DNA of 60,484 bases from Candidatus Giovannonibacteria bacterium (GCA_023266875.1 JAHFOJ010000004.1:1-60484); one strand, 5' to 3'; shown: positions 6,728 to 51,059, counted from the stretch's first letter. Made by a program: numbers and translations. The notes: a model not told the origin generated them from the letters alone.

Positions 6728-6807
6728 CCCCGTTAGAGAATGCCCCGCGGCTGGCTACGGAATTATAATTGCGGGGCGAAGTGTCACGAGTGAGTTCTCT
6801 AACGGGG
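6728..6807. repeat. Inverted-repeat element, copy 1 (CCCCGTTAGAGAA ... TTCTCTAACGGGG)
   Basis: Perfect 13-bp terminal inverted repeats (6728-6740 / 6795-6807). They enclose 54 nt containing an internal 7-bp GCCCCGC/GCGGGGC hairpin. The same core arms occur at 21387-21505 and 49636-49726. Confidence 0.7.
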
Positions 6808-20253: not shown

Positions 20254-21396
20254 ATGATATATAACGAATCATTGACGAAATTTTTTTGTTTGATAAGCTT
20301 AATAAAAATGACTAATCAATTATTTCAGCCGAAAAGTCTTGTTTTGCAGTGGCATATAACCGAACGATGCAATTGGCGGTGCAAACATTGCTACCAAACT
20401 TCGTATACGACGCCGGAGATGGATTTGAAAATGATGGAAAATATATTGGCGCAATACGTCGGACTATTAAAAAAATGGAATATCCCGCGCCGGCATGCCA
20501 GAATTCAGATTACAGGAGGCGAACCTTTTGTGCGCCGCGACATTTTTCAATTTTTGGAGAAAGTTTATAAGTTATCCGACCATTTCCAATGGACACTTTT
20601 GTCTAACGGCTCTTTTTTGACAGAAGACAAGGTCAAACTGCTTAAATTATTCGGCATCCAATCATATCAGGTGAGCATGGAAGGATTGGAGAAGACTAAT
20701 GATGAGATCAGAGGAGAAGGCAGTTTCAAAAAAATTCTAAAAGCAATAGAACTTCTTGTTTGGGCGAAAATACCATCAAGGGTTTCCTTAACCTTAACCC
20801 GGAAAAACCTTCCGGAGATTAAAGGGTTGGCCGATCTTTTGGCTCCCTTGGGGGTGCGTGGCTTGGGAGTGAGAAGAATAGTTCCGTGGGGATCGGGAGC
20901 GGCTATGAAAGAATATGTTCTTGAGCCGCAGGAGCTGAGGGGGCTTTACCGAGAGATAGAAGAAATCAACCGAACCATGATCGCGAACGGGCACTCTTTA
21001 AAAGTAACCGGAGGGTGCGAAAACGGTATTTTTAATGATGAGATTTCTGGGGAAGGGCTGATGTCGCACGGAGTTTGCGGGGTGACCTACGGCAGAATAT
21101 TGATAGTATTGCCGAACGGAGATACATTGGCTTGTCGGAGACTGCCGATTATTCTTGGCAATCTTCACGAAAAATCGATGGAAGAAATTTATTATTCTCC
21201 GCTTTACGAAAGCTGGCGCCAAAAAGAAGATGTCCCTTCTGTCTGCCAAGCATGCCCAAGTTATCAGCATTGTTTCGGCGGAGCAAAATGCGTAACTTAC
21301 GGGATGACCGGCAAAACCGCTCCCGATGTCCAATGCTGGAAATTATTTAACAGCCTAGAAGAAGCCGCTCACAGAATTAAAAATGAATCCCGTTAG
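20254..21396 (+). CDS. Radical SAM enzyme with C-terminal SPASM domain (peptide-maturase-like)
   Basis: CNWRCKHC (CxxxCxxC) near the N-terminus. C-terminal CX14GX4C ... CQACPSYQHCFGGAKC ... C, a seven-Cys SPASM-type pattern. Alternative start ATG 20308. Confidence 0.85.
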   Translation: MIYNESLTKFFCLISLIKMTNQLFQPKSLVLQWHITERCNWRCKHCYQTSYTTPEMDLKMMENILAQYVGLLKKWNIPRRHARIQITGGEPFVRRDIFQFLEKVYKLSDHFQWTLLSNGSFLTEDKVKLLKLFGIQSYQVSMEGLEKTNDEIRGEGSFKKILKAIELLVWAKIPSRVSLTLTRKNLPEIKGLADLLAPLGVRGLGVRRIVPWGSGAAMKEYVLEPQELRGLYREIEEINRTMIANGHSLKVTGGCENGIFNDEISGEGLMSHGVCGVTYGRILIVLPNGDTLACRRLPIILGNLHEKSMEEIYYSPLYESWRQKEDVPSVCQACPSYQHCFGGAKCVTYGMTGKTAPDVQCWKLFNSLEEAAHRIKNESR

Positions 21397-21505
21397 AGGC
21401 CGCGATCGCCTGTAAACGCATTTATTATTAATAATAAAAAGATGATTAACTTTATAAATAACACATGCAAATTGCGGCTATATCGCGATCTGCCTCTAAC
21501 GGGAT
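21387..21505. repeat. Inverted-repeat element, copy 2 (ATCCCGTTAGAGGC ... GCCTCTAACGGGAT)
   Basis: Perfect 14-bp arms (21387-21400 / 21492-21505) with further imperfect GATCGC pairing and an AT-rich interior. The left arm contains the radical SAM stop codon. The right arm contains ATG 21504. Confidence 0.7.
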
Positions 21506-48673: not shown

Positions 48674-49123
48674 ATGGAGATCTCCAAAGATCTGATACAG
48701 AAACTTCGCGATGCATCTTCTGTTTCGGTGATGGTTTGCAAGCGCGCGCTTGAAAAAGCTGGAGGAAATTATGAAAAGGCGCTCGAAATTCTAAAGGAAG
48801 AGAATGCCTTTTTAGCGTCGAAAAAGTCCGATCGAGAAACCAAATCGGGGATTATTCAAAGTTATGTTCATGGCGGGCGAATTGGTGTTATAGTCGAGCT
48901 AAAATGTGAAACTGATTTTGTCGCGCGTTCGCCTGATTTTGTTGAATTTTCCAAGGATATAGCCATGCATATCGCGGCTTCAAATCCGTTCGACGCCGAA
49001 GAGTTAAAGTTACAACCTTACATAAAAAATTCAGCCGCGACTGTTGGGGACTATATTAAAGAGGCTATCGGGAAATTTGGCGAAAATATTGAAGTAACTA
49101 AATTTTGCCGTTTTGAGCTATAA
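48674..49123 (+). CDS. tsf: Elongation factor Ts (short form)
   Basis: UBA-like N-domain LRDASSVSVMVCKRALEKAGGNYEKALEIL and the core segment GRIGVIVELKCETDFVA. rpsB-tsf synteny. Confidence 0.88.
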   Translation: MEISKDLIQKLRDASSVSVMVCKRALEKAGGNYEKALEILKEENAFLASKKSDRETKSGIIQSYVHGGRIGVIVELKCETDFVARSPDFVEFSKDIAMHIAASNPFDAEELKLQPYIKNSAATVGDYIKEAIGKFGENIEVTKFCRFEL

Positions 49124-49132
49124 AATAAAGAG

Positions 49133-49558
49133 ATGGCTTATTTCACCGTATTCATAATTTCAATTCTAGCTATAGCAATTATTTTTTCTAGACGCTATGC
49201 GTCTGTGCGGTTATTAACGGCTGACGAATTGATGGGCAGATTGATAACTTCCTCGTCAGTCCGTAGTGATTTAAGCAATAGATACGTGATTCCAGCCATT
49301 GAGAAAATAAAATCTTTTTGGTTAGGTATGTTTTGGATGTCTGCGGAGAAGATTCTCCGCGCGCTTCGTTCTATTGTGCAAAAAATTGAAGCCCGATTGA
49401 AATATCTTTCCGAAAATATGCGCGGGAGGCATGTAAATCTGGTTGTCGGAGAAAAAACGGAATATTGGCAGACATTAAACGGCGCGAGACCGGGTCGAGA
49501 GGGGGAAAAAGAAAATGTGGCAGAGGATACAAAAAATACTCCAGAAAACGGCGAATAG
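49133..49558 (+). CDS. Hypothetical membrane protein
   Basis: ORF with an N-terminal TM helix. No family recognised. Confidence 0.5.
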   Translation: MAYFTVFIISILAIAIIFSRRYASVRLLTADELMGRLITSSSVRSDLSNRYVIPAIEKIKSFWLGMFWMSAEKILRALRSIVQKIEARLKYLSENMRGRHVNLVVGEKTEYWQTLNGARPGREGEKENVAEDTKNTPENGE

Positions 49559-49597
49559 AATTCTATTTTTGGGATTCGTAGTAAAATAATAATTAAC

Positions 49598-49632
49598 GCC
49601 ACCTTAGCTCAGTAGCAGAGCAACGGTTTTGT
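49598..49632 (+). pseudogene. Orphan tRNA 5' half (acceptor 5' strand, D-arm, anticodon stem 5' strand and UUUGU)
   Basis: GCCACCT-TA-GCTCAGTAGCAGAGC-A-ACGGT-TTTGT matches the downstream tRNA-Thr from the D-stem to the anticodon. The acceptor strand differs, and no T-arm or 3' half follows. Confidence 0.6.
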
Positions 49633-49635
49633 TCG

Positions 49636-49726
49636 CCCCGTTAGAGCCGGAGTAGCTCAGCGGCAGAGCAACGGTTTTGTAAACCGTAGGTCGCGAGTTC
49701 GAATCTCGCCTCCGGCTCTAACGGGG
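49636..49726. repeat. Inverted-repeat pair, copy 3 (CCCCGTTAGA ... TCTAACGGGG) bracketing tRNA-Thr
   Basis: The arms abut the tRNA, so the acceptor stem extends into a perfect 17-bp helix (49636-49652 / 49710-49726). Confidence 0.8.
49646..49717 (+). tRNA. tRNA-Thr (anticodon TGT)
   Basis: Manual cloverleaf: GCCGGAG/CTCCGGC acceptor, GCTC/GAGC D-stem, ACGGT/ACCGT anticodon stem, loop TTTGTAA, variable AGGTC, GCGAG-TTCGAAT-CTCGC T-arm and discriminator T. No CCA is encoded. Confidence 0.9.
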
Positions 49727-49745
49727 TAAATAGACCATCGCAGAG

Positions 49746-51059
49746 GTGGCTCAAAAATATATGCCAAAAGAAAGGGTACTGAAAATAAAAAAAGTGGATC
49801 AAGTAACTGCTGGCCAGAAGAGGAAGGTTGTTATAGCTGGCGGGGGTTTTGCCGGTGTTGCATGCGCGCTTGATCTTTTAAAAAAACATCTTGATATTCA
49901 AGTTACTCTTCTTGATAAAAATAATTTTCATTCGTATAGTCCGGATTTTTATGAAGTTGCCGTGGGAATGGCGCACAAAAATCCGTCGCTCGAATTAAAA
50001 GATTTCTTAGAGTTAAAGACAACTGTTGCAATACCCTTTGAGGATATATTCAGGAGTTATAAAAACTTCGAATTTATCGCGAGCGAGGTAAAAAATATTA
50101 ATTTCAAAAAGCGTCTTGTGGAGACTGACGGTCCGGAGATTGGATACGATTACTTAATTTTAGCTATGGGGTCAGAAACTAATTTCTTCGGTATCGCGCA
50201 CATGGCCGAGCATGCGTTTGAACTGAAGCGATTAGGAGACGCGCTTAATATCCGCGCGGGCTTAAATGAATTATTCGAATCTCGCGCGAAACATGACGTG
50301 ATTTCCATAGTTATCGGCGGTGGCGGATTTACGGGGACGGAGCTCGCCGGGGAATTGGCTATAAATTTAAAACGTTTGAGCGATTTTTATGGGCACCCAT
50401 TGGAAAATGTCTCGCTTTCCATTGTTGAGGCGAGCGGCCGACTTTTGCCCTCTCTGGATAACTGGATTTCAACAAAAGCAAAGAGGCGGCTTGAGAAATT
50501 GGGAGTCGGCGTGGTTTTATGCGGGTACATTACGGAAGTAAGAAAAAACGAAATAATTTTAGAAAATCAAAAGTCTATTCCTTTTCATTTGCTTGTTTGG
50601 ACAGCTGGCGTCAAAGCGGCTTCTTGTTTGGAAAATTTTGATGGGATTGAGCTTGAAAAAAATAAGTGCGTAGCCGTGAATGAAAATTTAGAATTGTCCG
50701 GCAGAGAAAACGTTTTTGCTATAGGCGATTTGGCTCACATTGCATATGCTGAGAACAAAAAGCCAGAGCGAATGACAGCTTGGGCGGCGATTGAAGCGGG
50801 ACATTTTGTCGCAAAGCGAATCAGTTGTTTAATTTCAGGTAAAAATAAAACTGATTTTCGCCCGAAGTCCCGTGGTTTTGTGATCCCATTAGGCGGGAAA
50901 TATGCACTCGCCGATTTTGGATGGTTAAAAATTTCAGGATGGCTGGCTTGGCTTGCCAAACGGCTAATTACCTTAAAATACTTTATGTCAATTCTGCCGG
51001 CAGGCAAAGCGTTTAGGCTGTGGTTGCGGGGGATAAAAATTTTCACTAAAAACGATTAG
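49746..51059 (+). CDS. ndh: Type II NADH dehydrogenase-like FAD-dependent oxidoreductase
   Basis: VVIAGGGFAGV and VIGGGGFTGTELAGE dinucleotide motifs, plus GD near the C-terminus. GTG 49746 from the ORF track; alternative ATG at 49761. Confidence 0.85.
   Translation: MAQKYMPKERVLKIKKVDQVTAGQKRKVVIAGGGFAGVACALDLLKKHLDIQVTLLDKNNFHSYSPDFYEVAVGMAHKNPSLELKDFLELKTTVAIPFEDIFRSYKNFEFIASEVKNINFKKRLVETDGPEIGYDYLILAMGSETNFFGIAHMAEHAFELKRLGDALNIRAGLNELFESRAKHDVISIVIGGGGFTGTELAGELAINLKRLSDFYGHPLENVSLSIVEASGRLLPSLDNWISTKAKRRLEKLGVGVVLCGYITEVRKNEIILENQKSIPFHLLVWTAGVKAASCLENFDGIELEKNKCVAVNENLELSGRENVFAIGDLAHIAYAENKKPERMTAWAAIEAGHFVAKRISCLISGKNKTDFRPKSRGFVIPLGGKYALADFGWLKISGWLAWLAKRLITLKYFMSILPAGKAFRLWLRGIKIFTKND

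Follow-up and report, generated by a model that had tools for sequence, protein, structure and literature searches.

Tyrosine-integrase elements and phages replace only the 3' part of a tRNA gene, leaving a distant 3' duplicate; they are kilobases long and require an integrase. The Correia repeat-enclosed elements of Neisseria form hairpins that bind RNase III and can be cleaved by it (PMC2649163). A 2024 review of bacterial MITEs, the class to which Correia elements belong, mentions neither tRNA, nor cargo, nor GIY-YIG (PMC10969869). T4 SegB is encoded by a free-standing GIY-YIG gene located between the tRNA-Arg and tRNA-Ile genes, and no nested tRNA has been reported there (PMC2988022). In bacteria of the candidate phyla radiation (CPR), rRNA genes carry GIY-YIG-encoding insertions that are not introns, together with short insertions devoid of ORFs; inverted repeats and tRNA each have zero occurrences in the corresponding report (PMC11270868). 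Full-text searches of a literature collection with few subscription journals returned no description of nested bacterial tRNA genes or of GIY-YIG elements bounded by inverted repeats. Here we report a tRNA-Thr(UGU) gene that was probably brought in as cargo by a mobile family bounded by terminal inverted repeats (TIRs), splitting and replacing the resident gene for the same tRNA; the perfect helix in which the new gene is enclosed would be a by-product of this event.

The analysed window, i.e., the whole 60,484-nucleotide stretch of Candidatus Giovannonibacteria DNA, is contig C14 of a genome of 683,660 bp assembled in 25 contigs. The genome encodes bacterial rpoC, ribosomal protein S2 and EF-Ts, which identify it as that of a bacterium, and its size and relatives place it among the ultra-small CPR/Patescibacteria. 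Genes for RNase III, type A RNase P RNA (182.5 bits) and a protein of the CCA-adding-enzyme family are present. The sole tRNA detected by ARAGORN in the window is tRNA-Thr(tgt), at 49646-49718; the Rfam tRNA model assigns 74.3 bits to 49646-49717. This complete tRNA-Thr(UGU), on the + strand, is the only one in the assembly according to ARAGORN. It is accompanied by tsf, a small ORF and an oxidoreductase gene, and an integrase is absent from the neighbourhood. A scan for promoter and terminator consensus sequences around the locus returned nothing useful on the + strand. Three metatranscriptomes of the source study, one of them made from the same sample, and a wastewater RNA run yielded no informative coverage of 49540-49800. 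The EF-Ts ORF (within 48674-49558) spans only 149 residues, which correspond to the N-terminal half of TIGR00116. The ORF found downstream, 141 residues long, has no family match and shows 36-47% identity to ORFs in the corresponding position of G004, G005 and G006, three relatives.

The tRNA is flanked at the 5' side by CCCCGTTAGA (49636-49645) and at the 3' side by TCTAACGGGG (49717-49726). The strands of the acceptor stem are GCCGGAG (49646-49652) and CTCCGGC (49710-49716). As a result, 49636-49652 and 49710-49726 are joined by 17 perfect Watson-Crick pairs, one of which involves the discriminator T49717 and A49645, and the leader-trailer duplex reaches ~26 bp when small bulges are counted. 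The predicted folding energy of the 155-nt region is -76.5 kcal/mol (z = -7.98), and the 10-bp flank helix was obtained in none of 200 flank shuffles. The 17-bp helix, discriminator included, had been recognised in a preliminary description of the region and is confirmed here. The lack of an encoded CCA, also pointed out there, is correct (CTA is found at the 3' end) and is usual for this genome, in which most tRNA genes lack an encoded CCA and a gene of the CCA-adding-enzyme family is available. The helix/arm motif is missing from all 37 other tRNA genes of the genome, 34 of which lack any significant flanking helix. Among the 38 tRNA genes, the tRNA-Thr(UGU) gene at 49646 is alone in having more than 5 bp added directly to its acceptor stem.

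The halves of an older tRNA-Thr gene flank the arms, and the tRNA and its arms therefore lie inside the anticodon loop of that gene. The 5' half of this original, or shell, tRNA-Thr(UGU) gene maps at 49598-49631 (+ strand) and has the sequence GCCACCTTAGCTCAGTAGCAGAGCAACGGTTTTG. It includes the acceptor strand GCCACCT, the D arm, the 5' strand of the anticodon stem (ACGGT) and the loop residues TTTTG up to nt 35, and is recognised by its match to the inner tRNA (93% identity to nt 8-35) and to the uninterrupted gene of G006, a genome of the same family (32 of 34 positions). The 3' remnant, at 49727-49751 (+ strand), reads TAAAT AGACC ATCGCAG AGGTGGC T and was delimited by comparison with the shell of G005 and the intact gene of G006. 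Within it, TAAA corresponds to nt 36-39, AGGTGGC is the acceptor 3' strand, which matches the shell 5' strand and is identical in G006, and the final T is the discriminator. The whole T arm and the 3' strand of the anticodon stem are lost. The tetranucleotide TTCG (49632-49635, + strand) marks the left junction and takes the place of the expected left copy of the target site; CTTG, CCCG, CGCG or TCCG are found at the same position in sister cassettes.

The cassette therefore separates nt 35 from nt 36 in the resident tRNA-Thr(UGU) gene, which lies downstream of rpsB-tsf. The insert measures 95 bp, TTCG included, and both halves of the old gene directly adjoin it. Compared with the empty allele, T36-T43 of the target (8 nt) have given way to YYCG at the left and TAAA-T at the right, and 3 nt are missing. 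In the predicted fold of the whole region, an outer acceptor stem and a D arm are followed by a long rod bearing the inner cloverleaf. The outer tRNA was not called by ARAGORN when introns of up to 1000 nt were allowed, and no tRNA was called at 49598-49751 after removal of the insert in silico. To judge from these losses, the resident shell gene is dead, i.e., a pseudogene, in this genome.

By sequence, the arms of the tRNA-Thr gene belong to a family of small mobile elements found in this class of ultra-small CPR bacteria from groundwater, whose terminal inverted repeats they represent. The left arm, C-CCCGTTAGA (49636-49645, + strand), forms the 5' side of the helix and the right arm, TCTAACGGG-G (49717-49726, + strand), which overlaps the discriminator base, forms the 3' side. 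The 9-mer pair CCCGTTAGA/TCTAACGGG bounds 11 complete elements, 48-120 bp in length, in the genome, three of which are in the window. All but one of the 11 carry unrelated, non-tRNA filler, among them the copies of 80 bp at 6728-6807 and of 117 bp at 21388-21504, to which no strand is assigned. The latter is located exactly on a gene start (ATGAAT-element-ATGAAAG) and is flanked by a 4-bp TGAA/TGAA direct repeat. Of the 401 genomes of the class, 125 match the pattern CCCGTTANA-N(66-96)-TNTAACGGG, and a single genome may contain as many as 27 copies; the reversed pattern, used as a control, matched two of the 401 genomes, at most once in each.

When element bounds were taken as YCCCG...CGGGR, perfect 4-bp flanking direct repeats were found in 21 of 44 elements, versus 6% on random pairing. 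The target of the family is TNNA, mostly TGAA/TTCA, and many copies are inserted exactly at a gene start (ATGAAT-element-ATGAAA). The tRNA-carrying copies do not have the clean 4-bp target duplication seen in half of the family. No such duplication was found at the tRNA-Thr copy, where TTCG at the left and TAAA at the right match at one of four positions. The preliminary description had considered that the tRNA might sit in a mobile or repeat cassette, and this view is upheld, since the arms belong to repeats that are associated with a GIY-YIG nuclease. The split tRNA-Thr gene outside the arms and the genome-wide distribution of the repeat are features absent from that description.

Pfam GIY-YIG matches gathered from the studied genome and 25 relatives include the coding form of the family. 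The full element is 270-280 bp long, lies between 4-bp direct repeats of TNNA, the commonest being TGAA at an ATGAA gene start, and consists of a single ORF for a ~95-residue GIY-YIG nuclease that runs from repeat to repeat (MNPVRD...SLTG-stop). The TIRs are the first codons (xPVRD) and the last codons (SLTG-stop) of this ORF, which starts at the host ATG copy lying upstream and ends with a TGA stop that overlaps the host start codon. Intact elements of 275-278 bp, with the same repeats as the tRNA-Thr arms, are present in G004 and G010. Their ORFs score 68.4 and 67.1 bits against the Pfam GIY-YIG model, and their nearest relatives of solved structure are the UPF0213 proteins BH0048 (1ZG2) and EF2693 (1YWL). 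Since the same repeats bound GIY-YIG ORFs, the arms are best viewed as the ends of a mobile family associated with a nuclease. A strict full-length pattern matched 33 of the 401 genomes (0 in the control) and had no match in a viral contig collection, in which a phage vector was looked for.

In the studied genome, a decayed full-length copy (~272 bp) is found at C2:69671-69942. It has ATGAAT/ATGAAT flanks and features three TAA stops in the GIY-YIG ORF. The assembly contains no other nuclease-type copy with these repeats, nor any intact TIR-type nuclease. Because this nuclease survives only as the C2 pseudogene, the tRNA-Thr copy may be a fossil. In the tRNA-Thr cassette, a non-autonomous derivative, the tRNA stands where the coding elements have their nuclease ORF. 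From sequence we infer the nuclease activity, the mobility and the target preference of the element family.

The order rpsB-tsf-(small ORF)-tRNA-Thr(UGU) is syntenic across the class. At this locus G006 carries an uninterrupted gene, GCCACCT...ACGGTTTTGTAAACCGTAGGTCCTCGG...AGGTGGCTCCA, and the rpsB-tsf-tRNA-Thr site is likewise empty in five further loci. A nested tRNA-Thr is found at the rpsB-tsf locus in G005, G004, G040, G019, G017, G048, G060 and G023, and the loci of G048 and G040 contain three nested layers. Among filled loci, the arms co-vary (TTAGA/TCTAA, TTAAA/TTTAA and TTACA/TGTAA), with an outer pair that is either C..G or T..A. The design in which the arms abut the tRNA recurs in three genome families. 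In most sister cassettes the arms and the tRNA are separated by a spacer of 6-11 nt, and coaxial extension of the acceptor stem is therefore not conserved. Shell decay is graded: G005 and G054 retain complete shells, the shell of the studied genome has lost its T arm, and none is left in G022. Nests with differing shell acceptor stems have the same junction (YYCG ... TAAA-T). In G017 and G060, the T loops of the shell tRNAs hold further small hairpin inserts with ends TCCCGA...TCGGGA; these ends represent a third arm type, which is also found in the D-loop region of a tRNA-Gly shell on contig C19.

The inner tRNA, as defined by its GCCGGAG acceptor and GCGAG T stem, shares 89-92% identity with cargo tRNAs from other families, against only 83% with the resident GCCACCT type. 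The GCCACCT acceptor is also found in the tRNA-Thr(CGU) of the genome. A 45-nt piece, comprising the T arm, the acceptor strand, the right arm and TAAAT, is 98% identical in G060, the EF-Ts of which shows only 36% identity. The closer resemblance to the cargo of other families, and the near-identical piece shared with G060, mark the cargo as a foreign allele.

A metagenome scan for the exact abutting arm-tRNA design of the tRNA-Thr cassette identified 37 contigs from many samples. The cargo is a tRNA-Thr in all 37 (24 CGU, 12 UGU and 1 GGU), in 27 different sequences with 10 types of acceptor. The 17-bp duplex is found in 35 contigs, a figure partly imposed by the search pattern, which leaves only the outer pair free. 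Traces of a tRNA shell are recognisable in 31 of the 37 contigs, and the insertion site is the D loop in at least 14 and the anticodon loop in at least 11. The left edge is CTTG in 25 contigs and the right edge is TAAA, TGAA or CAAA in 32; cassettes with CTTG and TRAA edges occur both in the D loop and in the anticodon loop. After excision in silico, five of the 37 shells were still called as tRNAs, all of them cognate Thr-CGU, and 28 gave no call. As all callable shells are cognate and most shells are uncallable, shells begin as a cognate gene and decay thereafter.

Nesting is not restricted to tRNA-Thr. At least six tRNA genes of the studied genome (Thr-UGU, Pro-UGG, Leu-CAA, Ser-GCU, Gly-GCC and Asn-GUU) are nested in cognate shells. 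In other genomes, CCCGTTAGA arms enclose Gly, Pro and Val cargo within cognate shells. The arms of the Pro-UGG nest are CCCAGCCGTATTTT, and the tRNA-Pro shell, on contig C9, still folds into a full cloverleaf around the insert. These arms belong to a second repeat family, CCCAGCCGTAsTTTT...AAAAsTACGGCTGGG, copies of which map at C10:7068-7280, C19:12512-12588, C5:152-258, C9:55462-55567, C11:19079-19182 and C9:50490-50600. The sites occupied by this family include a start codon, the RNase P RNA gene and the 23S rRNA gene, where a GIY-YIG remnant is found; a further copy is the tRNA-Pro(UGG) carrier. In the Asn (C20:4620-5020) and Gly (C19:43296-43720) nests, one insert contains a small GIY-YIG gene together with the intact tRNA. 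The nuclease of the Asn nest is 55% identical to the TIR-bounded nuclease. A third small GIY-YIG gene, at C22:23235-23459, is located 70 bp from a tRNA-Met gene. A group I intron of 231 nt, which scores 89.9 bits with Rfam RF00028, splits the tRNA-Phe gene (C15:6858-7163).

The helix could alternatively be a dedicated processing signal, by which an RNase III-type enzyme would release the tRNA before RNase P acts, as at the stems flanking rRNAs. A double-strand-specific cleavage ahead of RNase P was the other proposal of the preliminary description. A rod with 17 perfect pairs, or ~26 with small bulges, is of suitable length for RNase III, which the genome encodes; Correia hairpins are bound and cleavable by this enzyme (PMC2649163); and the abutting design is repeated in three genome families and in 37 metagenome contigs. 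Against this, the same arms are found on 10 non-tRNA elements in the genome and on nuclease ORFs elsewhere, the motif is missing from the other 37 tRNA genes, and a 6-11-nt spacer interrupts the stem in most sister cassettes. Moreover, the orthologous tRNA-Thr(UGU) genes of close relatives are armless, a finding that speaks against a dedicated processing stem in the very terms of that description. We hence regard a dedicated signal as quite improbable. The arms are the TIRs of the family and were not built for processing, which makes the helix a by-product of the end repeats of the element. The arms are even less easily ascribed to chance, to a local inverted duplication or to an assembly artefact. 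Nothing beyond the metagenomic origin of the assembly favours this view, the helix length was not reached in any of the 200 shuffles, and the architecture is repeated in independent genomes and in 37 contigs from many samples; the probability of such an origin is negligible.

A nested precursor yielding two tRNAs would require that the inner tRNA act as an intron, be cut out by RNase P and RNase Z or by an archaeal-type endonuclease, and leave outer halves to be ligated. The location of the insert in the anticodon loop, the usual intron site, and that of sister insertions in RNA loops (D loop, at least 14; anticodon loop, at least 11) are consistent with this scheme, as are the full cloverleaf of the tRNA-Pro shell on C9 and five intact metagenome shells. 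The shell at the studied locus, however, lacks the T arm and the 3' strand of the anticodon stem and is not called after excision, 28 of the 37 metagenome shells are likewise uncalled, and the one real tRNA intron of the genome is a group I ribozyme. Further, there is no bulge-helix-bulge motif, since the helix is perfect and has no 3-nt bulges, and the tRNA-splicing endonuclease domain (PF01974) has no match in the genome, while the control search was positive in four archaea. Two functional tRNAs from this precursor are thus highly unlikely. Finally, the cassette may be a passive allele, spread only by natural transformation and by homologous recombination via the conserved tRNA halves in the absence of nuclease or transposition, with the arms as a frozen relic. 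The junction shared by shells with differing acceptors looks like the product of co-conversion, the tRNA-carrying copies lack target duplications and the genome holds no intact TIR-type nuclease, all of which fit this possibility. Yet the presence of the same cassette, with CTTG/TRAA edges, in the D loop as well as in the anticodon loop calls for one or more non-homologous insertions. Moreover, two other nests of the genome contain nuclease genes, and family members with other fillers do have target duplications. A purely passive history is consequently quite improbable.

Archaeal-type splicing is ruled out, as the genome is bacterial and lacks an EndA domain, and the helix lacks bulges. A group I intron at the locus is excluded by the lack of a group I match within 49300-50000 at E<=10, with the tRNA-Phe intron as a positive control in this genome. 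Insertion mediated by an integrase is not supported, given the size of the insert (95 bp), the adjoining halves of the old gene and the neighbours devoid of integrase.

Under the reading in which a mobile cassette split and replaced the resident gene, the complete element consists of the TIRs and the ~95-residue GIY-YIG nuclease, and in short derivatives the TIRs enclose unrelated filler. The tRNA cassette may have been installed through a nuclease-made break followed by host repair, or recombination, via the conserved tRNA halves, or else by direct insertion. The odd junction shared across lineages would fit a spread in which the conserved halves recombine and the junction is co-converted; the occurrence of the same cassette in the D loop and in the anticodon loop nevertheless implies at least one non-homologous insertion. 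Transcription would presumably start at the promoter of the old gene. In the precursor, the TIRs are predicted to fold into a rod of ~26 bp, 17 of them perfect, coaxial with the acceptor stem and with no purpose of its own. RNase P would have to cut at G49646 inside the rod, either directly or once RNase III has opened it; 3' trimming and CCA addition would follow. Cleavage by RNase III ahead of RNase P is thus a plausible consequence of the helix rather than the reason for it.

On a broader scale, a nuclease-only element of ~275 bp may have given rise to tRNA cassettes in Patescibacteria that repeatedly overwrote cognate essential tRNA genes via their loops, across families, a generalisation that we hold to be about evenly balanced. 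If it holds, an essential tRNA is matured from a precursor in which leader and trailer are paired through the discriminator. Such a precursor would be a natural substrate on which to ask whether RNase P cuts a continuous leader-trailer-acceptor duplex or RNase III must act first. Single-copy essential tRNA genes of reduced genomes would be horizontally replaced by a selfish cassette, which would parasitise the translation apparatus on the principle "break it and replace it", and this would affect the reading of CPR tRNA gene trees, of tRNA identity elements and of genome completeness. An unusually small, nuclease-only element would also join prokaryotic mobile DNA, with the same type of element residing in 23S rRNA and RNase P RNA genes. 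As for annotation, tRNA finders would detect the inner gene only, leaving shells and cassettes unannotated.

The locus shares traits with each of several known systems and differs from them in others. Archaeal bulge-helix-bulge introns and split tRNAs resemble it in the interruption of a loop and in the helix formed by flanking sequences. In contrast to them, the host is a bacterium, the bulge-helix-bulge motif and the splicing endonuclease are lacking, and the outer gene has decayed. Integrative elements also break an essential tRNA gene and themselves bring the replacement sequence. At the studied locus, however, a whole tRNA of ~90 bp, arms included, is inserted, the old halves directly flank it and an integrase is absent. 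Similarly to the element described here, T4 SegB is encoded by a GIY-YIG gene lying beside tRNA genes, and a break in the element-free allele is repaired from the bearer, so that the tRNAs are co-inherited (PMC2988022). Unlike SegB, the nuclease of the present family is a bare ~95-residue domain. Seg proteins are larger than ~95 residues and have DNA-binding domains, and they are not known to carry inverted repeats.

Bacterial MITEs are likewise short, non-autonomous, bounded by TIRs and flanked by short target duplications (Correia elements, PMC2649163; review, PMC10969869). MITEs such as the Correia elements further resemble the family in having many copies per genome, sites at gene starts and co-transcribed hairpins cleavable by RNase III (PMC2649163). 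Unlike MITEs, the partner of the family is not a DDE transposase but a ~95-residue GIY-YIG nuclease that fills the whole autonomous element, and the copy described here contains a complete tRNA gene nested in the cognate one. The insertions in CPR rRNA genes are found in the same phylum, involve the same nuclease family, are not group I or group II introns and are located at the tips or bases of RNA stem-loops (PMC11270868). The 23S rRNA gene of the studied genome contains an insertion of this CPR-rRNA type with a GIY-YIG remnant.
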